Source of the DNA: a virus
Direction: 5' to 3' (one strand)
DNA length: 64,000 nucleotides
IMG/VR virus record: IMGVR_UViG_3300022752_000021
In this document: positions 5,706 through 32,676 of the stretch, one piece after another
How the letters are laid out: the number at the start of each line of letters is the position of its first letter
Numbering within the stretch: position 1 is the stretch's first letter
Notes under the pieces: model-generated
What the model was told of the DNA's origin: nothing
The model's database searches: none
The model's input: only the letters and a program-made list of their open reading frames with translations
Program-made: the position numbers and the translations under genes

Positions 5706-6275
5706 ATGGGGAACTCTTCAAACTCCCTGTACACTAGCATCACTCGCGTTCTTATGGAGAGCAATGACCCTGATTTATCAGGGAAATATACATTGTTTAC
5801 TCTTTATGCAGACAACACTTCTGTATTGCACATTTTTGAGGATAGGGAAACCTTTGAAGCCATGAAATACAAGTTTACATCAAACGACGGCATCAAGCGT
5901 CTTGGCGCATCAAAACTACCAGAGAACACAACTTTCAAGAAACTCTCAGAATCAATAGAGCGCAAGTTCAATGTGCCAAAGGAAACAATCTCAGTCCGCA
6001 CACATGAACCCGCAAGACGAGAAGAGCCACAGCCTAGACAGGTTGTGAATGAAATGCCGACCGCTCCAAAGCCACAACAGAAGAAGCCCAAGAGTGGATC
6101 GGTTCTAGAGGGCGTTCTGAACGGCAGAGAAAGATTCAGAAACCAACCGATGCAAGGGATGCCAATGGCACAGCCAGAGAGGACAGAGCCTACAATCAAC
6201 TCTTTCCGCCCTGCAACGAATCAAAAGATTGACCTATCAAAACTCAACAATGGCGATAGACCATTGCTAGGATGA
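5706..6275 (+). CDS. Hypothetical protein
   Basis: GGAGG SD before the ATG at 5706; the longer ORF-track start overlaps the GIY-YIG gene. Confidence 0.6.
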   Translation: MGNSSNSLYTSITRVLMESNDPDLSGKYTLFTLYADNTSVLHIFEDRETFEAMKYKFTSNDGIKRLGASKLPENTTFKKLSESIERKFNVPKETISVRTHEPARREEPQPRQVVNEMPTAPKPQQKKPKSGSVLEGVLNGRERFRNQPMQGMPMAQPERTEPTINSFRPATNQKIDLSKLNNGDRPLLG

Positions 6276-14200: not shown

Positions 14201-15139
14201 TCACTCATTTGCCAACTTCTTGAAGTACGACAATGCATCATCCTCATCGTCATCTTCACTTACCTTGGTCTTTGGCTTTGCTTCCCGACCAGGAGCCTTC
14301 GCTTCGGCAGTTGGGAACTTCGGGGTGAACTTCTTCTCCGAAACATCCTCTTCTTCCTCTGAAATATCCATGTCCTCTGCCTTCTGAGACTGAGAACCAT
14401 TGATGACTGATTGGAACTTCGTCTTGAGTTCCCCGTAAGCCTTGAACTGATCTGGCTTCACGAAGTCAAGCAATGAGTATTCCTTGCGCCACAGAGCCTC
14501 AAGTGCCTTGTCATCTCCGTCGAGGAGAGGTGAAGATGCAGAGAACTCCGACTTGTCGTAGTTGCGATATCCATCGACATTGCGAATCTTGATCTTGAAG
14601 TTCGCTCCCTGCCAGAAGTCGAATGGATTCACAGCATCCTCGTCCTTGTACTGAGGATTCATCTTGTCATTGATCTTGTCGAAGATCTTCTTACCATAGC
14701 GGTAGAGGAAAACCTTTCCATTGTTGGCAGGATTGACAGGATCTTCAATCACAAGGACATTGCTGATGTAGGACAACTTACGCTTGCGATCCCGTGCAAT
14801 GTTCTTGTCATCGTCATTTCCGCTGTTCCACAACTCATTGTTTGCTTCACAGACAGGACACTTCTGACCGATTGTAGTGGGGCAGTTCTCAATGTACCAA
14901 CCGCCCTTTGCTTGAAATCCGTGGCTGAAGACACGAACCCAAGGAAGATCCTCATTTGGAGGTGCGGGGAGGAAACGGATGACTGCATATCCGTTGCCAG
15001 TCTTGTCAACTTCAGGTTGCCAGAGGCGATCATCCTTATAGGAGTTTTCGCCTCCACCCTTTGTGACCTTCTCTAGTTCCTTGGCAATCTTGCCAAGGTT
15101 GTTCTTTGAACTCTTCTTGAAACTTGCGAAATCTGACAT
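14201..15139 (-). CDS. gp32: Single-stranded DNA-binding protein (T4 gp32)
   Basis: DDRLWQPEVDKTGNGYAVIRFLPAP, WYIENC.TT...CPVC, YGKKIFDKI, acidic tail; AAGGAG SD. Confidence 0.95.
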   Translation of the reverse strand: MSDFASFKKSSKNNLGKIAKELEKVTKGGGENSYKDDRLWQPEVDKTGNGYAVIRFLPAPPNEDLPWVRVFSHGFQAKGGWYIENCPTTIGQKCPVCEANNELWNSGNDDDKNIARDRKRKLSYISNVLVIEDPVNPANNGKVFLYRYGKKIFDKINDKMNPQYKDEDAVNPFDFWQGANFKIKIRNVDGYRNYDKSEFSASSPLLDGDDKALEALWRKEYSLLDFVKPDQFKAYGELKTKFQSVINGSQSQKAEDMDISEEEEDVSEKKFTPKFPTAEAKAPGREAKPKTKVSEDDDEDDALSYFKKLANE

Positions 15140-15464: not shown

Positions 15465-15472
15465 TATAAATA
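15465..15472 (+). promoter_or_regulatory. T4 late promoter TATAAATA
   Basis: Exact consensus upstream of the structural gene block. Confidence 0.8.
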
Positions 15473-15505: not shown

Positions 15506-17101
15506 ATGGCTTTTGACACAGACAACAATGTAGCAGTATCAGGATTTTCGGGAGAAGCAGTAATAGCAACAGATTACTCTGCATCAGAGGGTAATCATTT
15601 TCAAGTAATGAAGATTGCTTATGGTGCTACTGGTGAAGGTGGCACAAGAGTCACATCATCAAACGGTTTGCCAGTTGCTATCGTAAACACTCCAACGGTT
15701 GCTGTGTCGAGTGTTGGTGGAACTGTAACTGTAACAGGAACTGTGAGTGTAACTCAACCCGTTGGAGTCACAGCAACAGATCTTGATATTAGAACACTAA
15801 CCGCAGGAGATCCAACAACTGCTGGTGCAATCACTCAAGATGTTGTTCGTGTGGTTGGATACTCTGGTGGTTGGGCAGTTGGAGTCACAGCAACAAACTT
15901 TGGAATTCGTGCATTGACAGCAGGAGATCCCACGACTGCTGGTGCAGCGGGTCAAGATGTTGTCAGAATCGTCGGATACTCTGGTGGTTGGGCAGTTGGA
16001 GTTACTGCTGTTGACCTCGATATTCGATCTTTGACTGGAACCTCAGACAGTGTTGCTATATACGGCACAGTATCGGTTCAGGCTGTAACAGGACCATTTG
16101 ATGCAACAGATCCAAATGTTGGATTTCAAACACGACTTCTCAGGGCAACAAGAGATGCTACTGGAGCAATCAGTGATTTAGATTTGAGTGGTCGATTGAG
16201 CGCACAAGGAATAGTAGAAGATAGTGTCCGCGTCATTGGTCTTTCTGGTGCCTGGCCCGTTTCAGTCTTCTCACATGGTCTTACAAACATCACCAACTAC
16301 GATACCAAAATCCCATTCCATGTTGACAGTACTGGTGCGTTGTTTGTGAACCTTGCGAGTGGGTCGATTGGTGTCACTGCAAATATTGCAAGTGTTACCG
16401 TTGGTGCTGTAACAATAAGTGGATTATCTCTAGCAAGTGCAACAGCAGCAAGCGAAGTATTGCAAATTAATGGGTATACGGGTGCTGGTTCTATACCAGT
16501 TACTGTTGGAGGAACGGTTAATATTGGTGGAACAGGTCTTTCGTATATTAATAACATAAAAGATATACTTTTTGGATCTACGGGATCTGGCATACTTGTT
16601 GATGCCACAGGCGACTTAGAGACGAAATTTATTGATAAGATTTCATTCCATGAAGAGACGAATGAAAAATGGCTACGAGTCGCTGGCTATAAAGATGCGA
16701 GTATGAATGATGCACTTGGTTCTATACAGACTGATGTAGATGATCTGCGTAAGATATTTCTTACTAACACATCAGCAACATCTGTGGTATCATCCAATGG
16801 ATTGTTGAAAGTTGATGTTCAGGCAATAGCACAACCAACAGGTGGAACTTCAAATAGGGTTGCGGTTTCTAACAGTTCACCAACCACATTCGCATCTGTT
16901 GCTCTATCAAGTGGTATACACTTCCGCAGTGATCTAAACAATAGTGGAACTATATTTGTTGGATTCTCTTCCGCAGTTTCGTCTCAGAATGGATTCCCAT
17001 TGTATGCGGGAGATCAAATCTTCATCGAAACAGACAACTTGAATAGACTTCAGACATGGTCAACAATCAACGGTGCTACTCTCTATTACATAGGAACCTA
17101 A
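15506..17101 (+). CDS. Virion structural protein (fibre/decoration-like) with 39-aa repeats
   Basis: Late promoter; G/T/V/S-rich; C-terminal NSGTIFVG...NGFPLYAGDQIFIE motif. Confidence 0.6.
   Translation: MAFDTDNNVAVSGFSGEAVIATDYSASEGNHFQVMKIAYGATGEGGTRVTSSNGLPVAIVNTPTVAVSSVGGTVTVTGTVSVTQPVGVTATDLDIRTLTAGDPTTAGAITQDVVRVVGYSGGWAVGVTATNFGIRALTAGDPTTAGAAGQDVVRIVGYSGGWAVGVTAVDLDIRSLTGTSDSVAIYGTVSVQAVTGPFDATDPNVGFQTRLLRATRDATGAISDLDLSGRLSAQGIVEDSVRVIGLSGAWPVSVFSHGLTNITNYDTKIPFHVDSTGALFVNLASGSIGVTANIASVTVGAVTISGLSLASATAASEVLQINGYTGAGSIPVTVGGTVNIGGTGLSYINNIKDILFGSTGSGILVDATGDLETKFIDKISFHEETNEKWLRVAGYKDASMNDALGSIQTDVDDLRKIFLTNTSATSVVSSNGLLKVDVQAIAQPTGGTSNRVAVSNSSPTTFASVALSSGIHFRSDLNNSGTIFVGFSSAVSSQNGFPLYAGDQIFIETDNLNRLQTWSTINGATLYYIGT
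15761..16030 (+). repeat. About 2.3 copies of a 117-bp (39-aa) coding tandem repeat
   Basis: VGVTAT..IR.LTAGDPTTAGA..QDVVR.VGYSGGWA units start at 15761, 15878 and 15995. Confidence 0.85.
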
Positions 17102-17104
17102 TAC

Positions 17105-17488
17105 ATGCGTAGTGACTTTATAAACAAACGATTCATCAGCAATAAAAGACTATTATCTCAAACGCAGTTTGTTGATACTGAAATCATAGTCATACCAGAG
17201 TTTGATACTTTCTATTACCACAATCCACCATCAGCCTTTGTAGATAAATGGGGTGGAATTATTAGTGGAAATTTTGAAGAAGCAACACAAATTCCAATCG
17301 GACTATTGAATCCGTGGAATGATGGAGACGATGCCCCAGCAGAGGGTGGAATGCTTGGCGCATCCATTCCAGTGAGAACACCAACAAGAACAGCAATGGC
17401 TTTTAACTTGTCATCGCTTCCAGCAAATGCAAATATAACTGACGCAAAACTTATCCTTACAGTATCAAGTAAAAGAGATTGGGATTAA
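17105..17488 (+). CDS. Small protein carrying the N-terminal strands of a DNRLRE-like beta-sandwich; in frame with the next gene
   Basis: RTAMAFNLSSLPANANITDAKLILTV; a single TAA plus 7 sense codons separate it from the ATG at 17510. Confidence 0.55.
   Translation: MRSDFINKRFISNKRLLSQTQFVDTEIIVIPEFDTFYYHNPPSAFVDKWGGIISGNFEEATQIPIGLLNPWNDGDDAPAEGGMLGASIPVRTPTRTAMAFNLSSLPANANITDAKLILTVSSKRDWD
17459..17488 (+). repeat. 30-bp exact direct repeat, copy 1 (ACAGTATCAAGTAAAAGAGATTGGGATTAA)
   Basis: Identical to 22310..22339. Confidence 0.9.
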
Positions 17489-17509
17489 AAATCAAAAGGT
17501 ACTTTAGTA

Positions 17510-20500
17510 ATGTTCAATCCACCCGTCATAGTTCCGTCAAGTCTGATCAATCAGTTTACCACAACATCACAACCATACATGGTGGACGACAATGGTGTTT
17601 GGAGAGGAGTAACTGAGCCTCTAATAGCAGATAAATTGACAGAAAATGGTATACTGCCTGATATGATCGACGATATTGATCCTATTCACTATCCTCTTCG
17701 TACACCAGGTTTAAATAAAAATGTAATTTGCAGATGGCTAACACCATCATATCAGACTATTGGTGGAGAAAGAAACCCATCATATCTTGATGTTGGGGTT
17801 ATCGCGTTTCATCATAGTGGAATAGATAAGGTTGTTTTTTATCTCAATGGAATATCAAATCCAATAATAGTTACAGAAGTAACATATAATCCAGAGCAGG
17901 ATGTAAGTGCCTATTGGGTGCGTTTAGATTCCTCTTTGTTTCCGATTGATAGTGGTGATATAATTTCTAGAGGAGAAACGACCTCTGCTTTGCCAAAACC
18001 AACATCAATAGAAATAAAACCACACCATGAATTGCAAGCCGTGATATATCCAAAAAATGGAAAACCAAGAATACTTGTTGGAAAGCATAACAACAATAAA
18101 AATACTTTAGCATACAATGCAATATCTGAATATACAGATCCAGATACTGGTCTAATGGTGGGGACATCAGAAAATACTGGAATACGATCTTTCTATTTTT
18201 CGACAAACACATCAAATACATTATTCAATAAAGCCGTTTATGTTGATGCAACTTCAAATGGCATTGATGATATTTCTAGATCTGGTTCATCTGATCAGCC
18301 ATTTAAAACCATTGAATTTGCCATCAAGCGGCTGATGGCTTTTAAGCATAAACACTACAATCCATTTTCAACTACAGAAATTAAAACTATGGGAGATGTT
18401 GGTGGAGGGACAATATATCTCAAAGATCTTGGTGAAGGATCAGAATTATACAATGGTCACAAATGGGGAGCCATTTCTTGGACAGGATCCCCACAATATA
18501 AATCTTTTGCGAGAATGCGTTGGTTGACTATTGAGCGAGATCCAATGGTTGCTGATGGTAAACATGCCAAAATAAAAGGGTGTCATCTTCAAAGCACAGG
18601 GAAACTCACAAAAGAAAATATGGGCAAAGGTATTTGTGTCCAACTAATAAAACTAAACAATTGTGTCGTGGAGATGGACTGGCCCTGGTCGGAATATGCG
18701 TTTGGTATTGGTCCGGAACTAGATTATTCTCATATAAATCAAGGCGTTGCACCAGATGCTAATTTACAGAATAATTTTAAAATATGGAAGATTAAAAGAG
18801 GAACATCAAATTTCAACACCCCAACTATAAGTGCAACAGATCAAGAATTTCCAGTACTCTCATTTAATGAAACATCACTAAATTCATTTGAATATGATTC
18901 ATCACTTGAAATATTAGTGTCATCAGCATTGGGGTTTGTGCCACCATATCAATGGTTGAACCACACTGTAGTTGATGGTGGGGAAAGAAATAGGCATAAA
19001 ATATACGAATGGGCTAAAGCAAATGGAATGACCTATTCCACCACTATGGTACCAGTACCAGATTTTAAAACCAATCTTTCGGTTCAATTTTCAGAAAATA
19101 AGAAAGGTGTATTTGCTTCAGACGGTATCACGCCAATACCAAGTGGGTTGTCTCTCAGCAGTGTTCCAGCCATATTTGTAAAGGCTCAATCAGATATGGT
19201 TGGGTTCACAACATCTATGGGATATACATTTGAATTTCCGTGGACAGATCCAGAAGGGTCAAGCCCAAATGCCCAGATATGGAACAATACTGCTCTGTAT
19301 GCATTTATAACAAACTCGGTAATTAAGCATGTGCAAGAACCAGCAAAATTGGCGATTGATATCTTGGTTAATTCTACCATAGATCAATGGGAAGCAGACA
19401 TTATTAGAGCAAGTGGAGTTTATTATCAACTGTTTACCATAAACGGATTTAGAACTCACAACTATGTTAATGCTTCTGGTGCGCCCCTGTTTAGAATACA
19501 CTCAGATTTATTTCAAACGAATAGTGGCTATTATTCGTTCAAATCAAAAATTGCTGGTATAAACAATCTAATAATCCACAGATTCAATAACCCAAGCCCA
19601 AGAAGCAAAAGATATTACGATATAGATGCTAGACATGGAGTTTCTGGAGAAGGACCATTAGTTGATATAAGACAAGAAGGACAATGGTCTATTTCAGGAA
19701 GAATAATAAATGCGCTGTCAGACAGATTGCATAACTATTCTATAGCCGAAGGTGGAGATGGACTAACTTATGAATTTTTCGGAGGTAGATATGTTAGAGA
19801 TATAGTGTTTTCTGATTGCCTTTTGAAGACATCAGATGGATCTCAACAAATAGTTCTAACATGTCCACAGGAAAATGTTCTGTTTTATAACACACAGATT
19901 GTGTCTGGTGTATCAACTCGACCAATACCCAACAACAGTTTTCTTGGACAAAGCACCTTTGGGGGTAGCGTATATCGTTATAAAGATGCAGTTCCATCAG
20001 CACCATCTTTGAATTATCCAAGTGGAGGAAATAATTTAAATAATGATGATTGTCTACACTATGATCTAGTTGTTTTTGATAATGTTCAACAATACTGCAT
20101 GTCAGACATAGATGAAAGTCTTTTAGATCCTTATGAAAGGCAACTGATTATATTTGTTGGTGATGGAACATCAAATCCAAATAATTTGAAAAGTGTTAAT
20201 ATAGATTTTAGAGGTAGACCAGATGGTAGCAGACCGAAATACATGCGAGAGGCTAGAACTCTTCTTTCCGATTTGAATTATCCATTTGAAAGAGTGAATG
20301 GTCAGGCTGGACCAAACCAATCAGTAGGAACGAATGCAAATATATTCTTCCCCGTTCTAGCAACAGATAAAGATCATGCAATAGCAAATAATATTGGATT
20401 AGTTGAAAACCAACCAAATAGTACTACAAGAGGTATTTGGTATCAAAATACATTAGAGGGAGATTTTGTCGGGGCAAATTATGGGTGGATGCCATCAGCA

Positions 20501-22234
20501 ATAACTTATGAAAACTTCATTCTTCCGAAAAATCCAAGCACTGGAATAACTCTTTCTAAAACGAATGCAGAAATATTAAATCTAGATCCAAACAATCAAT
20601 TTTTAAATAAGCAAAAACTTGGTTGGCAAGAAAATCCTAATCAAAGAGGATTCAAAAACAATCTACAGTATAGATTCACAAACTTTGATTACGATGGTAC
20701 TAGATCTGAGTTTGGAGAAATTCTTCAGAGAAGTGCATTCGAAGAAGATCAAACAGGAACCATAACCAATCCACCACCTATTTCAAACCATCCCATCACT
20801 ATCAGCCTCACCACAACAGACATACAAAAAGACATCTCATGGGCAAGTAAAGACACGTTCAATGGTATAACTCACGGAAAAGATTCTTTCTACACCCAAA
20901 CACTACAGATACCAAACTACCTAGAAAGAATTGAAGACATCACGGATCCAGCAGATGATCCTGAAATTGGTCCTAGTAGAAGCAATGAAATATCAGGAAA
21001 CAGTGACATAACACCAAATCAAGGTGGTGTTTATGTTACGGGTGGATCGGTTGACATAACACTAAATACAACTATTGGTGCTGTAAACTCAATCGACGTA
21101 AAGAACCTTGCAACTAAATTTCAATCTGTAGTCAGAACTGCTAATGGAAATACCTTTGCAGTTATTCTTCATGGCAAGACTATACCAAACACGGAATTTG
21201 GTGAGTACAAATATGTTGCACCACAATCTATGTCAAGAGAAGAATGGGAGCAACTAGGTAGTCCACCCGATATAGATCCAGACGGGCTTCACTATCAAAA
21301 TTTCTACAAAGAGTTTGCGTACATTGCATTCAACAGTAAAGAATCACCAATAACCTCATCTATAACAAGCAATCAGATATCATTCCGTAAATCACCACAC
21401 CACACTTATATCAATTTTTCACAACCGGAAATGGACGGGCTTTCATTGTCAAGTGGTGCTACGGGTCTTTCTTATGTTGATCTTGTGACGGGATCGCCAT
21501 TTGTGGCAACAAAGATTACTAAACTACAAGCACTTCTCAAGGGTATAACTTGTAACATTAATTCTTATGGCGAATTTACAAGCGCAAGTAAAACAAATAC
21601 TGCGGGAACAAACCCACAAGTTATAACTTGTACAAATAAGACAAGAAAGTTTGTGGATTTGATAGAGAATGGAAACAAGATTGTTTTTCAGGGTATTCTT
21701 GCGAGCGGTAGTAGTTCCATTTTCAATTCAACTACTCCGAGATATGAACACAATGGTTCAATGGGATCGGTCAATGCAGCATATCAACAAAATCCACTCA
21801 ACCAAGCAACACCACACTATGTTATACCGCCACCAATAATTGATCAAGATGGCAATATCTCATCACCAATAACTATTCATTTCAGATTCCTAAACCCCAT
21901 ATCGTTTGGAAATAAGAATCTTCTTGCATATAAAGTTCCAGTCGGTGGAACAAGATTGTTTGGTGGAACATCAAATTTAGGAATCACTGCTGGTTCTTAT
22001 GTAAGAATAAGCAACTCTACATCAAATAATGGAATCTATCAAGTACTCTCTGTTGCTGATGGTATTGAAGGTGATACTGCTTCAAATACCAAGACGGGTG
22101 GTTCAACCGAATATCAATATCTTGAGTTGAGTAGAACAATAGTTCCCGAAGAACAGGCTGGTAGTAACAGTATAAAAATTGAAAATGTGTCTCATCTGCC
22201 TATACTACACATCAAGTATAGACAACCAGTATAA
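17510..22234 (+). CDS. Giant virion protein, putative beta-helix depolymerase/receptor-binding protein (paralog A)
   Basis: GVIAFHHSGIDKV, GSSDQPFKTIEFAI (DUF1565-like) and HSDLFQ motifs; C-terminal ~480 aa shared with paralog B. Confidence 0.55.
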   Translation: MFNPPVIVPSSLINQFTTTSQPYMVDDNGVWRGVTEPLIADKLTENGILPDMIDDIDPIHYPLRTPGLNKNVICRWLTPSYQTIGGERNPSYLDVGVIAFHHSGIDKVVFYLNGISNPIIVTEVTYNPEQDVSAYWVRLDSSLFPIDSGDIISRGETTSALPKPTSIEIKPHHELQAVIYPKNGKPRILVGKHNNNKNTLAYNAISEYTDPDTGLMVGTSENTGIRSFYFSTNTSNTLFNKAVYVDATSNGIDDISRSGSSDQPFKTIEFAIKRLMAFKHKHYNPFSTTEIKTMGDVGGGTIYLKDLGEGSELYNGHKWGAISWTGSPQYKSFARMRWLTIERDPMVADGKHAKIKGCHLQSTGKLTKENMGKGICVQLIKLNNCVVEMDWPWSEYAFGIGPELDYSHINQGVAPDANLQNNFKIWKIKRGTSNFNTPTISATDQEFPVLSFNETSLNSFEYDSSLEILVSSALGFVPPYQWLNHTVVDGGERNRHKIYEWAKANGMTYSTTMVPVPDFKTNLSVQFSENKKGVFASDGITPIPSGLSLSSVPAIFVKAQSDMVGFTTSMGYTFEFPWTDPEGSSPNAQIWNNTALYAFITNSVIKHVQEPAKLAIDILVNSTIDQWEADIIRASGVYYQLFTINGFRTHNYVNASGAPLFRIHSDLFQTNSGYYSFKSKIAGINNLIIHRFNNPSPRSKRYYDIDARHGVSGEGPLVDIRQEGQWSISGRIINALSDRLHNYSIAEGGDGLTYEFFGGRYVRDIVFSDCLLKTSDGSQQIVLTCPQENVLFYNTQIVSGVSTRPIPNNSFLGQSTFGGSVYRYKDAVPSAPSLNYPSGGNNLNNDDCLHYDLVVFDNVQQYCMSDIDESLLDPYERQLIIFVGDGTSNPNNLKSVNIDFRGRPDGSRPKYMREARTLLSDLNYPFERVNGQAGPNQSVGTNANIFFPVLATDKDHAIANNIGLVENQPNSTTRGIWYQNTLEGDFVGANYGWMPSAITYENFILPKNPSTGITLSKTNAEILNLDPNNQFLNKQKLGWQENPNQRGFKNNLQYRFTNFDYDGTRSEFGEILQRSAFEEDQTGTITNPPPISNHPITISLTTTDIQKDISWASKDTFNGITHGKDSFYTQTLQIPNYLERIEDITDPADDPEIGPSRSNEISGNSDITPNQGGVYVTGGSVDITLNTTIGAVNSIDVKNLATKFQSVVRTANGNTFAVILHGKTIPNTEFGEYKYVAPQSMSREEWEQLGSPPDIDPDGLHYQNFYKEFAYIAFNSKESPITSSITSNQISFRKSPHHTYINFSQPEMDGLSLSSGATGLSYVDLVTGSPFVATKITKLQALLKGITCNINSYGEFTSASKTNTAGTNPQVITCTNKTRKFVDLIENGNKIVFQGILASGSSSIFNSTTPRYEHNGSMGSVNAAYQQNPLNQATPHYVIPPPIIDQDGNISSPITIHFRFLNPISFGNKNLLAYKVPVGGTRLFGGTSNLGITAGSYVRISNSTSNNGIYQVLSVADGIEGDTASNTKTGGSTEYQYLELSRTIVPEEQAGSNSIKIENVSHLPILHIKYRQPV

Positions 22235-22241
22235 AGCAAAA
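20783..22241 (+). repeat. About 1.45-kb duplicated coding segment, copy 1
   Basis: Highly similar to 24146..25598; last 78 bp identical. Confidence 0.9.
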
Positions 22242-22252
22242 GGGCATAAATC

Positions 22253-22339
22253 ATGCAATTATTTTCACCACCAATTATTGAAGCGCATTCTAGCAGAAAC
22301 ACTTTCACAACAGTATCAAGTAAAAGAGATTGGGATTAA
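22253..22339 (+). CDS. 28-aa upstream ORF (MQLFSPPIIEAHSSRNTFTTVSSKRDWD), in frame with paralog B
   Basis: Ends in the 30-bp repeat; junction reads TAA-GAA-ATG; translation unproven. Confidence 0.35.
   Translation: MQLFSPPIIEAHSSRNTFTTVSSKRDWD
22310..22339 (+). repeat. 30-bp exact direct repeat, copy 2
   Basis: Identical to 17459..17488. Confidence 0.9.
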
Positions 22340-22342
22340 GAA

Positions 22343-25300
22343 ATGGCATTACCAAATATTCCGATTGGTCAAAATTTTGAATCTCTTATCAGTGCTTTTG
22401 AAGCAATAGGAGGATCGACTGCATCTGCAATCGCTCGTTGGGTTGATGTTCCGTTTCAAATGGCAGCAGGAAAGTTTGAAATAGGAGTAGTTGCTTTTCA
22501 TGCGGATGGAATTGATAAAGTAGAGTTTTCTGCCAACGGTGGTACTTTTATACCCGTAACAGAACCAACATTCAGTGAAAAGTTCAATCTACCTTGTTAT
22601 CGCGCGGAGATTGATCTCGACACAGTTGCAGAAGGGAAGCAGATAGAAATAAGAGCAGTTGTTACCCCCATACAGGGAATACCTCTTATTTTACAAAATT
22701 CGGAAGGACTCACGGGGTTCACGGCGAATACTGGAAAGCATTCATTTTATGTAACTCGTAGAACAAGCAATCCCCGTGAAATATTCGTAGCAAATAGTGG
22801 CTCTTCAACAAATAGTGGATTGACCACCGCATCTCCAAAACAAACTATTCTGCAAGCACTACAAACACTTCGTGGGTCAAATGCTGCACAGATTGGTGGT
22901 GATTTCATCACCATCACCGAACCAGGAATTTACACCATACCAAACGACAAAGGTTCTGCCTGTAGTAACTCAACTTGGACCACTATAAGAATATCGGATG
23001 GATTGACCACTGGCGATGTTTCTATTTCTGCCATTCCATTTGGAATGACTTCACCCGATGGATTTACTGGAGAGATTACTACTAATGATAGAGATGGTAG
23101 AGGAATAATAAGAACAAAGTGGACAAGACTTTGTTTTACAAACATGTTGTTTGATATGAAGAATTTGAACACTTATTATTTGTCTCCTGGTCAAAATCTT
23201 TGGTTTGATAAGTGTATTCTCAATGATAGCAATGGTCCTGGCAATCATTATCTTGATAGAACATATACTAGTAGACAACAACACCTACATAAAGGCTCGT
23301 TTGCAACCGATTCAATCGCAGCAAATCTGCCGTATGCATTTTGTGGAATATCTCTCGTTCGTGGGTGCCACACTGTTAAAATATTTGGAGATAACTATGC
23401 AAATAGCCCTTGTGTTCTTGCTTGCTCTATGCAAGATACACTTGGTTCTTTGACCGACAATCCACACAGTGACATATTTCAATATTTTGTTCCGCTTAGT
23501 AATGCTGTTGTCTATAAATTTCATGCGTGGAATGTAGAACACGAAACTCAAAATTTTTATTGGGATGATCTTCCAGCGGCTGGATTTTTTGATTCGGCAT
23601 GGGTGGATATTGTTATTCAAAATAATCACACCCTCAGCCCATCAGTTCCAAAATCTCAATTCAGCAACGAACATGATAATGTTTTATTTTTCAATATTAC
23701 TGCCCCAAACCAATACTGGACTTTACGAGATGATTGGTTAGATCCAGAAAAACAATTCCGTGTAGTCGGAAACAAGGTTATCATTAGAAACTGTGTGCTT
23801 GAGTATATTTCAAGAGGAGGCGCACAACCAGGTCTGCCACCAGGAGTTTCTGTTGAGTACACACATTTTTCAAATCCAAATTCAATAACAGAAATGGGTG
23901 TAGACACCCCTGGTCTTATTGAACCCACCAGTGGTAAAGTTTTAGTTTCTGTTTCAGATTCACCAACATCAGAGATGTGGGGTATTGTTGGGGATGGAGC
24001 AGCAGCAACGATAGCCAGCGGCATAGAGATCCCAAAACTAACATCACCAAACCCAAATAGAGGATTTGTATCAGAGGAAGGATTTGTAACTCCAGGATAT
24101 TTGCTTCTACCAAAAGTTACAAATATCTCAAATCCACAACCAACCTCTAATCACCCCATCACCATAAGTCTTACCACAACCGATATCAAAAAGGATATTA
24201 GTTGGGCAAGTAAAGACACGTCCAATGGTATAACTCATGGTGCAGATTCTTTCTACACCCAAACACTACAGATACCAAACTACCTAGAAAGAATTGAGGA
24301 TGTCACGGATCCAGCAGATGATCCTGATATTGGACCAAGTAGAAGCAATGAAATATCAGGAAATACTGCGGCAATACCAAATCAAGGTGGGGTTTACATT
24401 TCAGGCGGAACAGTTGATATAACATTGAATACAACTATCGGTGCTGTAAACTCAATCGACGTAAAGAACCTTGCAACAAAGTTCCAAACATCAGTTCGAA
24501 GTGCCAATGGAAATACCTTTGCAGTCATTCTTCATGGTAAATCTGTACCAAATCCATTTTTGGGTGAGTACAAATATGTTGCACCACAATCTATGTCAAG
24601 AGATGAGTGGGAAGAGTTGGGTCGCCCATCCAATGTAGATCCAGACGGAGTTCACTATGAAAATTTCTACAAAGAGTTTGCGTACATTGCATTCAACAGT
24701 AAAGAATCACCAATAACCTCATCTATAACAAGTAATCAAATATCATTCCGTAAATCACCACACCACACTTATATCAACTTCCCAAGATCGGAAATGGATG
24801 GCTTGTCCTTGTCCAATGGAGCAACTGGCTTATCGTATATTGATCTTGTAACAGGAACATCGTCCGTAGCAACGAAGATTGCTAAACTACAAGCACTTCC
24901 AACAGGAATAACATGCAATATAAATTCCTATAGTGGTGAGTTTACAAATGCTGGAAAAAGAAATGCAGCAGGAACAAATCCACCTTCAATCACATGCACA
25001 AATAAGCCAAGAAAATTCGTTGGAGTTGTAGAAAATGGAAACAAAATTGTAATACAGGGAATTGCTGCAAGTGGAAGTAATTCTATTTTCAGTGGTGTAA
25101 ACAGATACGAACATAATGGGGGAGTGGGATCAGTAAATCCAAATTATCAACTATTTACACTAGATGATCCAACCATTCCACACTATGCTCTTGCAGAACC
25201 ATCAATAGATCCACCAGGTCCACAAGAAACTATTCACTTCAGATTCCTAAATCCTGTATCGTTTGGAAATAAGAATCTTCTTGCGTATAAAGTTCCAGTC

Positions 25301-25591
25301 GGTGGAACAAGATTGTTTGGTGCTTCACCGAATATAGGAATCACTGCTGGTTCTTATGTAAGAATAAGTGGTTCTGCGTCGAACAGTGGAATCTATCAAG
25401 TACTCTCTGTTGCAGATGGTATTGAAGGTGATACTGCTTCAAATATCAAGACAAATGGATCGACCGAGTATCAGTATCTTGAACTAAGTAGAGGGATTAC
25501 ACCTGTAGAACAGGCTGTTGGTAACAGTATAAAAATTGAAAATGTGTCTCATCTGCCTATACTACACATCAAGTATAGACAACCAGTATAA
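22343..25591 (+). CDS. Giant virion protein, putative beta-helix depolymerase/receptor-binding protein (paralog B)
   Basis: AIARWVDVPFQ...GVVAFHADGIDKVEFSANGG, SGLTTASPKQTILQAL and HSDIFQ motifs; shared C-terminus. Confidence 0.55.
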   Translation: MALPNIPIGQNFESLISAFEAIGGSTASAIARWVDVPFQMAAGKFEIGVVAFHADGIDKVEFSANGGTFIPVTEPTFSEKFNLPCYRAEIDLDTVAEGKQIEIRAVVTPIQGIPLILQNSEGLTGFTANTGKHSFYVTRRTSNPREIFVANSGSSTNSGLTTASPKQTILQALQTLRGSNAAQIGGDFITITEPGIYTIPNDKGSACSNSTWTTIRISDGLTTGDVSISAIPFGMTSPDGFTGEITTNDRDGRGIIRTKWTRLCFTNMLFDMKNLNTYYLSPGQNLWFDKCILNDSNGPGNHYLDRTYTSRQQHLHKGSFATDSIAANLPYAFCGISLVRGCHTVKIFGDNYANSPCVLACSMQDTLGSLTDNPHSDIFQYFVPLSNAVVYKFHAWNVEHETQNFYWDDLPAAGFFDSAWVDIVIQNNHTLSPSVPKSQFSNEHDNVLFFNITAPNQYWTLRDDWLDPEKQFRVVGNKVIIRNCVLEYISRGGAQPGLPPGVSVEYTHFSNPNSITEMGVDTPGLIEPTSGKVLVSVSDSPTSEMWGIVGDGAAATIASGIEIPKLTSPNPNRGFVSEEGFVTPGYLLLPKVTNISNPQPTSNHPITISLTTTDIKKDISWASKDTSNGITHGADSFYTQTLQIPNYLERIEDVTDPADDPDIGPSRSNEISGNTAAIPNQGGVYISGGTVDITLNTTIGAVNSIDVKNLATKFQTSVRSANGNTFAVILHGKSVPNPFLGEYKYVAPQSMSRDEWEELGRPSNVDPDGVHYENFYKEFAYIAFNSKESPITSSITSNQISFRKSPHHTYINFPRSEMDGLSLSNGATGLSYIDLVTGTSSVATKIAKLQALPTGITCNINSYSGEFTNAGKRNAAGTNPPSITCTNKPRKFVGVVENGNKIVIQGIAASGSNSIFSGVNRYEHNGGVGSVNPNYQLFTLDDPTIPHYALAEPSIDPPGPQETIHFRFLNPVSFGNKNLLAYKVPVGGTRLFGASPNIGITAGSYVRISGSASNSGIYQVLSVADGIEGDTASNIKTNGSTEYQYLELSRGITPVEQAVGNSIKIENVSHLPILHIKYRQPV

Positions 25592-25598
25592 AGCAAAA
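24146..25598 (+). repeat. About 1.45-kb duplicated coding segment, copy 2
   Basis: Highly similar to 20783..22241. Confidence 0.9.
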
Positions 25599-25624
25599 CC
25601 CCCCGTGTGAAGAGCGGGGGGTTT
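25595..25624. terminator. Intrinsic terminator (bidirectional-type)
   Basis: AAAACCCCCCG-TGTGAAGAG-CGGGGGGTTT. Confidence 0.75.
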
Positions 25625-25669: not shown

Positions 25670-25701
25670 AAAGAAACAACCCCCGAGAAATCGGGGGTTG
25701 T
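25670..25701 (-). terminator. Intrinsic terminator after the PEP-CTERM-like gene
   Basis: ACAACCCCCGA-TTTC-TCGGGGGTTGT-TTCTTT on the minus strand. Confidence 0.75.
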
Positions 25702-25742: not shown

Positions 25743-26408
25743 TTAGCGACGGCGGCGACCGATCAGACCAGCCATACCAAGAAGAGCAATCGCTCCTGGA
25801 GTTGGTGCAGAAAGGACAAATGCTCCACCCGCTGTATTGCCGATGAATGTTGGAAGTTGTCGCCAATCTCCCCAATCATACTGACCATTATCGTCTGTGA
25901 ACCAGAAGTCTTGGACATTTTGACCTTGTGACCAAACAAATTGATCGCCAGCAGAATCGTTGAGGTAAGCACCAATGTTCATGTAATATGAACCAGCAGC
26001 GAGTTGAGTCACAAATGGTACATAAAATTCATAAACTGGTTCACCAAAGAAGTTGAATTCGCCTGTATCAACAACAGAAATGTTGCTGATGTTGATATTG
26101 GTTGAACTAACTGGCGAACTAAAGTCTGAATTCCACACAATGACTTGGAATCCAGTAATGTTTCCGATACCTTGACCATTGAAACCATTCGAAGAACCCC
26201 ACCACCTCAAAGAAGAAGTTGTGTATGAATCTTCAAGATCAAATCCTTGCGCTCCGCTTTGTGCATAAGTGTATGAACCACTCGACTTGTATGCATCAGA
26301 GTAGAAGCCAACCGTGTCAACTACTGGATTGTTCACGACGATGAAATCTGCACTTGCGACTGAGCCACACGACACGGCTGCTACCAAACCAACGATAAAG
26401 TTTCTCAT
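25743..26408 (-). CDS. Secreted protein with PEP-CTERM-like sorting signal (Phycisphaerae-type P[AT]PG variant)
   Basis: Signal peptide ending ASA-D; C-terminus APTPGAIALLGMAGLIGRRRR; AAGGAG SD. Confidence 0.85.
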   Translation of the reverse strand: MRNFIVGLVAAVSCGSVASADFIVVNNPVVDTVGFYSDAYKSSGSYTYAQSGAQGFDLEDSYTTSSLRWWGSSNGFNGQGIGNITGFQVIVWNSDFSSPVSSTNINISNISVVDTGEFNFFGEPVYEFYVPFVTQLAAGSYYMNIGAYLNDSAGDQFVWSQGQNVQDFWFTDDNGQYDWGDWRQLPTFIGNTAGGAFVLSAPTPGAIALLGMAGLIGRRRR

Positions 26409-30351: not shown

Positions 30352-32676
30352 CTATATTATTCCCATTGCCATCAAAACAAAATCCGGAACACGGCTGGAA
30401 ACTGTGAGTGTGTTTCCACTTTGTGTGATTGTAACATTTGTTCCAGCCGTAATTCCTATCGCACCAGTCTTCCCATTCACCGAATTCACAATGTTTGGTG
30501 CAAAAACATTGACCCCAAAGTTTGCCTCTATATTGCTGATGCTGAATAGATTTGTGCCAGTATTATCAACTCCGTTGTATATTGTAAAAACACCAATATT
30601 GTTCTCAAGGTAAGTATTGGTTGCTGTCGTTCCACTTCTGCCTAGTCTTATACCACCAACTCTACTCGCACCACCAGATGCTGCCTGTGCAATGCGTAAA
30701 CCTGCTCCATCGGTGGAAGCAATGATATCCACCGTGTTTGTCGTTGATGTGGCAGCAATCGTTGAATCGAATGTCGCACCGCTTGTCACATACAGATTCG
30801 AAGCAGTCAAACCACCATCAATAACAACAACAGAATTTGCTGGATCTAGTATTATAGATCCATCACCAGTTGCTATCGTTGCATTCGATGTATCGTGGTT
30901 AATTCTAACATAGTCATTAGCAGTGCTGCCACCAGCATAAATGTATAAAGTTGGATGTGCATGATCTGTTGTTGGTATTCTATTAGAACTTGTTCTTTGA
31001 TTATTTTGAACTAAAACCAAAGAACCACTTGATGATGAATTTTGATCCCCTGTCAATAGACCAATGGACAAACATTGTTGTCCGCCACTACTTCTCTGTG
31101 AAAGTGTGTAATATGATGATGCACCAAAAGTAAAATCTTTGCCGTCGCTAATATTACAATTGGTATCATATAAAAAACTACCAGCATTTAGTGTGCCATC
31201 GGAAGATCTAACAGTTCCTAATTTTACACCATATGTCCATGTTGTCGTATCAATATACATTCCATAAGCACTAGCACTGGTCGGTGCTGGCATGATGTCA
31301 ACTCTACCATTTGTTGAATTTTGTATATACTCATCATTTGGTAGTATCAAAGTTCCAGTAGTTAAATCCACATTTCCGCTAACGATTACTGAATCAGATG
31401 GATTGGATAAAAATAGTTGATTGGAACCATCATTAACAAATATGTAAGTGCTATTTCCATCACCATTGTAATCGCCTATGGAAGTTGTGTTAAATGCATC
31501 ACCAATGTTTAAATTTGATATTGAAGTCAAATTACCACTGCCATTAAACTTTATCGTTGATCCAGAACTAAATGTTGCACCAGAAGCAGAAATACCAGCA
31601 GAAAAAGATTGTAATTGTGTAAAGGTTTGTGCTATATTTGTTTTCGCAACATTCGTAACAGCACCAGTTGCACCATTGACTGAAGTAACATAATCCGTTG
31701 GAATAGCACCTGTTGCACCTGTGTTGCCTTGAATTCCTTGAGAACCTGTTGCACCTGTTGCACCTGTTGCTCCTTGAGAACCTGTAGCACCTATTGCACC
31801 TGTGGCTCCAGTTGGTCCAAGTTGAGTATACATTACCTGATGAGCAGTAAGAATTACCGATGGGATTGCTGGTCTAGTAGGACTAGTTCCCGCTGGATCT
31901 GCAATAAGTTCTAAACGAGTATCTGATGTTCGCCACATCAATTCAACATAATCGTTAGCACTAACTTGGAGCATATAGTTCCAAGCAGCAACGGTTTTTG
32001 CTGCTAACGCGCTACCAGAAACAGTGACAATAGTATTACTATCTGGAACATCTGTTCCATTTTTACGGAACCATATATCAATAGTATCTGTGCCAGATCC
32101 CGAAACTCTATCTGCCTGTGCAGAAAATTCAATGTTGTATACACCAGCATGACTAAATGTAATTTGTGAGTTAGAAACTATACTTACACCATTAGAATTT
32201 GGATCTGTGTTGTTGTAAGTAATAGGATAAGCAAGTGTAGTTCCTGCTGCCACTTGATCTTGAGTTGACCAAAAACTACCCCAATATCCTAATGCTCCTC
32301 CTGCACCAGTATTTCCCTGAATTCCTTGCGGACCAGTAGCACCTGTGGCTCCAGTGTTGCCTTGGATTCCTTGAGAACCTGTAGCACCTGTGGCTCCAGT
32401 GTTGCCTTGGATTCCTTGAGAACCTGTAGCACCCGTAGCACCTGTTGCACCTTGAGAACCTGTAGCACCTGTAGCACCTGTATTTCCTTGAGAACCTGTA
32501 GCACCTGTCGCTCCAGAACCACCGCCACCACCAACAATCTGTATTGTTTCTCCAGTTGTACCACCAACATACAAAATGGCATCAGTCACATTGACGGCAA
32601 GTTCGCCGTATGTGAGTCCAGAGGGAACAACCCCCGCAGTTAAGCCTCTCTTGATCTTGATGGTAGTATCTGCCAT
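30352..32676 (-). CDS. Tail fibre protein with collagen-like repeats
   Basis: IKIKRG...[15 protein letters not shown]-terminus, [10 protein letters not shown] repeats, [11 protein letters not shown] motifs; ATAAATA at 32695-32701. Confidence 0.8.
32330..32520 (-). repeat. Collagen-like Gly-X-Y coding repeats ([15 protein letters not shown])
   Basis: Tandem 9-bp/45-bp units; a second block lies at about 31700-31815. Confidence 0.85.

Follow-up and report, generated by a model that had tools for sequence, protein, structure and literature searches.

We analysed a window of 64,000 nucleotides (nt) from the IMG/VR virus record IMGVR_UViG_3300022752_000021, and in particular a plus-strand locus in which a small gene (127 amino acids (aa), positions 17105..17488) is followed by two giant genes, giant 1 (1574 aa, 17510..22234) and giant 2 (1082 aa, 22343..25591). 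The giants differ in their N-terminal cargo regions and share a C-terminal module, and the same sequence of 30 base pairs (bp) is found ahead of each of them. In the following we call the small protein the plug and the shared module the socket. The best overall explanation, which we consider probable, is that plug and socket form a composite unit in trans, that the stop codon of the plug gene is genuine and that the second copy of the 30 bp is a scar left by an unequal crossover. Plug residues 20-127 and the ~480-aa socket of each giant would co-fold into one unit, with the plug strands 96-100 and 113-120 running antiparallel between the socket strands 101-109, 127-131 and 474-478. As this co-fold would form in trans, one plug gene would serve every socket-bearing protein of the genome. 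The region as a whole would form a single late operon of a T4-like freshwater myovirus that has not been cultured, with the gene order P0004, plug, giant 1, a short open reading frame (mini-ORF) and giant 2.

The small gene, its stop codon and the 30-bp repeat

The 30-bp sequence ACAGTATCAAGTAAAAGAGATTGGGATTAA, which encodes TVSSKRDWD followed by TAA, occurs exactly twice in the window (17459..17488 and 22310..22339, both on the plus strand), and none of 100 shuffles gave a match. The initial annotation of this stretch had described it as an identical element ahead of both giants, which our counts confirm; when the repeat is extended, 32 of 33 bases are identical. At the first copy the TAA is followed by seven codons (KSKGTLV) and the ATG of giant 1, at the second copy by GAA and the ATG of giant 2. 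In both cases the TAA is in frame with the next ATG, as had been annotated, and no stop lies in between; the chance of finding both in frame is ∼1 in 9. The two copies are identical at 30 of 30 positions, whereas the sockets show 83-85% nucleotide identity over the 300-nt stretches that we compared. At an identity of 85% the probability of a 30/30 match is 0.85^30 = 0.008. Contigs from an independent study match the window without any difference over positions 17212-18035 (run X2) and 22164-22469 (run X3). Because these contigs cover both copies unchanged, the two stops and the junction at copy 2 are not artefacts of one assembly, and an assembly error at either TAA is rejected.

The initial annotation had placed each giant behind a cassette of its own, and this part did not hold. 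Copy 1 consists of the last nine codons and the TAA of the plug gene. No second small gene precedes copy 2, which instead ends a chimeric mini-ORF of 28 aa on the plus strand (22253..22339; MQLFSPPIIEAHSSRNTFTTVSSKRDWD and stop) and is better read as a recombination scar, as discussed below.

The plug family has 45 members, which are 127-221 aa long. The N-terminal MRSDFINKR does not vary among them, and down to 36% identity almost every member ends in KRxWD followed by a stop (...KRDWD and stop in the window). In the related contigs the stop codon is either TAA or TGA. The gene after the plug is out of frame in three lineages (L001/L002, L003/L004 and L006/L007). For L008 the next gene is in frame with the plug, yet two further in-frame TGAs intervene, and in L005 the plug gene comes after the giant and not before it. 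No tRNA gene was found within the window, and translations of the readthrough products gave no added domain match.

Programmed readthrough of the TAA, or a recent nonsense mutation, would join the small ORF to each giant and complete a domain in cis, which was one of the options raised by the initial annotation. In its favour, each TAA shares its frame with the ATG that follows, and no stop intervenes. The comparative data, however, bring it close to refutation. Because the stop is conserved across the 45 family members, the downstream frame varies, L008 has additional in-frame stops and the window holds no tRNA gene and hence no suppressor, readthrough and a recent nonsense mutation can be excluded for practical purposes, and the stop is the natural and conserved C-terminus of the plug. 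Moreover, readthrough at copy 2 would lengthen merely a 28-aa remnant and not a plug, and a readthrough product would carry the entire cargo between its plug and socket parts, unlike the natural fusion P0096 (see below), which joins the two directly. We therefore regard a completion of the domain in cis as extremely improbable.

Plug and socket as a predicted composite unit

The cargo regions of the two giants measure 1089 aa in giant 1 (17510-20776) and 599 aa in giant 2 (22343-24139) and are unrelated save for a weakly similar Ig-like stretch. The sockets (20777-22234 and 24140-25591, respectively) are 483-485 aa long and show 80% amino-acid identity. This agrees with the divergent cargos and the shared C-terminus of ∼480 aa given in the initial annotation.

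Folded alone with a 28-sequence alignment, the plug was predicted to be disordered, with a predicted local distance difference test (pLDDT) value of 55.7. The socket alone reached a pLDDT of 78; residues 190-475 were confident, and residues 50-80, 137-151, 170-188 and 476-483 were weak. For plug and socket together we obtained a co-fold score of 0.87, against 0.01 for the best of three controls. This mark was reached by 58 of 80 solved complexes and by 2 of 110 mismatched pairs, although these are rough counts since we used custom alignments. The co-fold runs showed a contact agreement of at least 84% and a partner pLDDT of at least 67. Binding of the small protein to the C-terminus of either giant in trans, the second option of the initial annotation, is thus supported in silico.

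The predicted interface consists of 365-391 contacts between plug residues 20-127 and socket residues 3-22, 45-74, 96-133, 143-148, 167-191 and 469-483, and these socket stretches are the ones that are weak when the socket is folded alone. All of the motifs that had been annotated as split between the 127-aa ORF and the shared C-terminus are located in it: RTAMAF...AKLILTV of the plug and DISW (19-22), IDVKNL (106-111), FNSKESP (185-191) and LPILHIKY (472-479) of the socket. The pairs with the lowest predicted error correspond to antiparallel strand pairing, with plug 113-120 alongside both socket 101-109 and socket 474-478 and plug 96-100 alongside socket 127-131. The interface takes in 24% of the module but seven of the 12 columns that are invariant in the socket (p = 0.0099), and all invariant plug residues past position 9 except W49 belong to it as well. 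The first nine residues of the plug lie outside the predicted interface. As they are nevertheless invariant, they probably serve another contact and would dock the unit to a further conserved partner, which may be P0004 or the virion.

The genomic linkage of both partners was also analysed. Plug and socket are encoded on the same strand in all seven lineages with enough flanking sequence, and the plug gene is located upstream of the giants in every lineage except L005, in which a giant sits between the P0004 gene and the plug gene. The socket also occurs as an autonomous unit, namely in stand-alone proteins of 440-530 aa, at the N-terminus of P0089 and internally in P0082. In L022/L023 a plug with an 870-aa extension is followed by two bare sockets (starting with MPIY(N/E)HPI.IRL and ending with ...IKY), and in L006 a plug with a 300-aa extension is followed by a giant. 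Depending on the relative, the variable cargo is carried by the socket, by the plug or by neither of them. The initial annotation had suggested looking for uninterrupted homologs, and we found one in P0096, a single chain of 650 aa with a plug (hidden Markov model (HMM) match 1-137, E = 1.5e-37), a 4-aa linker and a full socket (139-649, E = 3.6e-69). The plug is joined straight to the socket and not via a cargo.

An alternative role for the small protein would be that of a folding chaperone or transient cap for the C-terminal module of the giants, of the T4 gp38/gp57 type, rather than that of a permanent half or anchor. Predicted binding to the C-terminal module would be expected in this case, as would a single small gene that serves several large fibre-like proteins, and PMC10579305 describes phage fibres that have cognate chaperone caps at the C-terminus. 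We consider this role unlikely, as the predicted interface is very large and the strands of both chains are intercalated, which resembles an obligate co-fold. The natural single-chain fusion P0096 also speaks against it, and the large extra domains on the plugs of some relatives would be unexpected in a transient chaperone. The plug of the window (P0001) has no Pfam or PHROG match to tail-fibre chaperone families or gp38-type adhesins. The C-terminal partners of tail fibres in general (T4/T2 gp38, Tfa-type assembly proteins and chaperone caps; PMC10579305) are similar in that a small protein encoded beside the fibre binds its C-terminal region. The small gene described here differs in that it is located upstream, is far more conserved than the fibres, would serve one to three paralogous giants, sometimes carries large domains and in P0096 is fused N-terminal to the module; no homology was detected.

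In tailed phages, modular receptor-binding and depolymerase proteins determine the host range, and the known systems dock these proteins via N-terminal adaptors on the same chain. Starting from the composite unit, one can go a step further and read the locus as natural split-domain docking: plug and socket would fold only together and form a constant core, cargos would be fused to either partner, and the nonapeptide of the plug would fix the unit to the particle. We put this forward tentatively, as a possibility that we do not favour outright. A single small gene would then suffice for the display of any cargo that bears a socket, which would be nature's equivalent of engineered plug-and-display tags, and unequal crossovers at the 3' end of the plug and within the socket would offer a route of cargo gain and loss. 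Already as a composite unit, with a conserved C-terminal module that a separate small protein appears to complete, the case would represent docking by another logic, in a clade of T4-like freshwater phages that is so far uncharacterised. Split, fused and permuted versions occur naturally, and, if the claim is true, the two parts would make a compact handle by which enzymes could be attached to phage particles.

Branched and modular tailspikes (TSP1-4 of Ackermannviridae and the anchor-branch receptor-binding proteins of Klebsiella phages; PMC11414711 and PMC6872550) share with this locus the presence of several large enzymatic spikes per phage and the combination of a conserved docking part with exchangeable enzymatic parts, whose cassettes are shuffled by recombination. 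Their conserved docking domains are N-terminal and on the spikes themselves, whereas the conserved module of this locus is located at the C-terminus, and a separate protein of 127 aa is predicted to complete it. No sequence or family match to the adaptors of those systems was obtained. In donor-strand complementation, known from chaperone-usher pili, and in engineered split-domain tags, a beta-sandwich is completed by strands of another polypeptide. The principle would be the same for plug and socket, but the families and the context are unrelated, ∼100 residues instead of one strand would be supplied and the partners are phage late proteins.

The initial annotation had assigned the split domain to the DNRLRE type, and we could not establish this membership. 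The DNRLRE profile NF033679 matched RTAMAFNLSSLPANANITDAKLILTV of the plug (residues 93-120, i.e. 28 residues; profile positions 30-57 of 164) with 19.8 bits and E = 6e-4, whereas the curated cutoff of the profile is 34 bits. Six plug homologs showed this match too, and it always stopped at profile position 58-62, even in the forms of 437 and 1001 aa. None of the 28 socket sequences matched the profile at E <= 10, and the same was true for the complete giants (P0002 and P0003). The likeness of the socket motifs FNSKE and P.L.IKY to the end of a DNRLRE domain was seen by eye only; FNSKE and LPILHIKY are located in the predicted interface. Unlike in a DNRLRE domain, an insertion of ∼280 residues precedes the last strand, and the domain would be divided over two genes. 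No clear fold match was found for the model of the socket alone, and searching the PDB with profiles of the plug and socket alignments returned nothing significant (best: BMP9 prodomain, E = 0.59).

It has nevertheless to be considered that the plug-socket unit could be a composite carbohydrate-binding, CBM96/DNRLRE-like receptor-binding tip, with the giants attached to the particle by their N-termini. CBM96 is an alginate-binding module of the DNRLRE type (PMC9971899). The weak match to the plug hairpin, with its repetition in six homologs, points in this direction. Several giants furthermore share an N-terminal leader (MQLFNPP...FTT.SQP) and an Ig-like region, which would suit N-terminal attachment as in known tailspikes. 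Tips are normally the part that varies most, however, and here no part of the giants is better conserved than the module, and the plug hardly varies at all. The match is also below the cutoff, never extends past profile position 62 and has no counterpart in the socket. A binding tip thus appears rather unlikely to us.

Origin of the second 30-bp copy

The closest relative, IMGVR_UViG_3300032092_000040, shows the gene order P0004, small gene, giant A, giant B and giant C. Positions 17513-22311 of the window are colinear with giant B of the relative (86% nucleotide identity), with the spacer that follows it and with codons 1-20 of giant C (MQLFNPPKIQAHSGRNTFTT...). Giant 1 has 87% amino-acid identity to giant B. 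Homology to giant C stops exactly at the start of copy 2, and the window carries giant 2 where the relative has its third giant. The mini-ORF is the start of giant C (MQLFSPPIIEAHSSRNTFTT, 20 codons) joined in frame to VSSKRDWD-TAA, i.e. the last eight codons and the stop of the plug, and it ends 3 nt ahead of the ATG of giant 2. At the junction the parental sequences share only the 3 nt ACA (giant C codon 20 and plug codon 119).

The simplest origin of the second copy would be a single unequal crossover between two related genomes. One parent would have carried the order plug, giant B and giant C and the other the plug immediately before giant 2, and both would have been joined at the 3-nt microhomology. 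Since the copies are identical at all 30 positions compared to 83-85% for the sockets, the crossover would have been recent or would have involved very close relatives. The in-frame TAA would end the leftover leader just before giant 2 and may couple translation to this gene; the second copy itself would have no docking role. In that case the locus offers a clean snapshot of the gain of a second enzyme through a single unequal crossover, with a datable 30-bp scar and a leader remnant.

We also observed a conserved N-terminal leader, M(Q)(L)F.PP.I...S..N.FTT.SQP(Y/F), in several giants (window 17510-17580; L011:1288-1360 and 6018-6090; L008:8460-8530). This MQLF leader is missing from giant 2, as it is from the giants that come directly after the small gene elsewhere (giant A of the relative and the giants of L003 and L006).

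The number of giants per lineage ranges from one to three. An ORF of 61 aa located 3' of the plug gene in L005 (L005:8450-8635) is an internally deleted giant that retains the first 26 (MQAFNPPTVLTHSPSNSFTTLSQPF...) and the last 14 residues (...SHLPILHIKYRQPS and stop). It is followed by a terminator hairpin, and an intact giant is located upstream of the plug. The locus is recombinogenic, as this internally deleted giant shows.

One could also argue that the repeated 30 bp are a selected functional cassette that each giant needs, either as an element for the initiation or coupling of translation or as a recombination target for the exchange of cargo. The perfect identity of the copies within paralogous DNA of 83-85% identity fits a cassette, giant 2, which begins 3 nt past the TAA, lacks a good Shine-Dalgarno sequence of its own, and the junction is in frame. 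On the other hand, nothing of this kind precedes giants B and C in the closest relative, the giants of L004, L006 and L008 come after divergent plug ends with differing spacers, and the element ahead of giant 1 is merely the end of the plug gene itself. We consider a cassette to be quite improbable and the crossover scar the better account of the second copy.

An assembly artefact at the junction was considered as well and rejected, as the parents share only ACA and the same junction is present in the contig of run X3. A join of 17488 to 22340, as expected if giant 1 were deleted between the repeats, was absent among the contigs compared, which carries little weight as contigs drop rare variants. 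In one 713-nt freshwater contig of run X3 we observed positions 25114-25520 joined back to 22164-22469 via a 78-nt patch that is identical in both sockets. This join of 25520 to 22164 is ambiguous: the assembly may have run through the repeat, or the tandem arrangement may be a real variant.

Several points weigh against the overall explanation. The binding of plug and socket is a matter of model confidence and not a measurement, so that the model supports binding without showing it, and the alignments of plug and socket used for the co-fold were not paired by genome. The fused protein P0096 is known from one 3.4-kb contig only, and no relatives of it were found in IMG/VR or the JGI metagenomes. 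A donor genome with the plug directly before giant 2 was not found either: a search of IMG/VR with the donor junction GATTGGGATTAAGAAATG returned five unrelated chance matches only. Selection or gene conversion could likewise account for the perfect identity of the 30-bp copies. No Pfam match was obtained for the giants, and no significant family match for their cargo regions. Finally, a location on the virion is suggested by a single T4-type late-promoter-like motif, TATAAATA (15465..15472, plus strand), which is found 34 nt upstream of the operon's first gene, P0004, and is the sole such site on the plus strand between positions 15000 and 25700.

Cargo regions, neighbouring genes and source of the window

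The cargo of giant 2 consists of an Ig-like region and a probable right-handed beta-helix. We found no relatives of it in IMG/VR. Its only close homolog, P0052 (672 aa, 45% identity), has no socket and shows a weak match to DUF1565 (E = 0.063). A profile search of the PDB with the cargo gave a weak match to rhamnogalacturonan lyase (E = 0.2), and the nearest named Atlas clusters are all beta-helix families (0.86-0.89), which we take as a lead only. The cargo of giant 2 would probably be a polysaccharide-degrading beta-helix, and both giants are probably sugar-cutting proteins. P0052 is encoded on a 10.1-kb contig of JGI sample 3300059473, within a bacterial polysaccharide-synthesis cluster with glycosyltransferases, a pyruvyl transferase, a flippase and a sulfotransferase. 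As this homolog lacks a socket and lies in a cellular cluster, it suggests that the cargo of giant 2 has been exchanged between phage and host.

The locus forms a single plus-strand block flanked by minus-strand genes. It is headed in all cases by P0004, a conserved repeat-rich protein of 531 aa (15506..17101, plus strand), which shows 47% identity to its homolog in the distant L022. P0004 has no Pfam or PHROG match and the Atlas returned leads only; we regard it as a candidate fibre or anchor. Between positions 15761 and 16037 it contains internal direct repeats of ∼40 aa (...GVTAT(D/N)(L/F)(D/G)IR(T/A)LTAGDPTTAG...VVR(V/I)VGYSGGWAV). Scans against Pfam and PHROGs gave no significant match for P0004, the plug, giant 1 or giant 2, and searches of GenBank phages with the 10-kb region and with plug and socket gave no match.

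At its 3' end the operon is closed on the plus strand by a G+C-rich hairpin followed by TTT (25599..25624), which was read from the sequence as a terminator-like element; such an element is also found 3' of the locus in L005. A second G+C-rich hairpin follows (25679-25700), so that two successive hairpins separate giant 2 from the convergent gene at 25743-26408, and they look like back-to-back terminators.

The genes of the window identify it as T4-like myovirus DNA. We found a family-B DNA polymerase, a gp41-like helicase, a gp46-like nuclease and a class II ribonucleotide reductase. For the polymerase the nearest GenBank phages are cyanomyoviruses, with an identity of only 50%. DNA of the window was recovered in lake and freshwater metagenomes. 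On the minus strand (30352-32676) the window furthermore encodes a collagen-repeat protein of 774 aa, which matches many tail-fibre PHROGs and is a candidate for a second, conventional fibre of the same genome.

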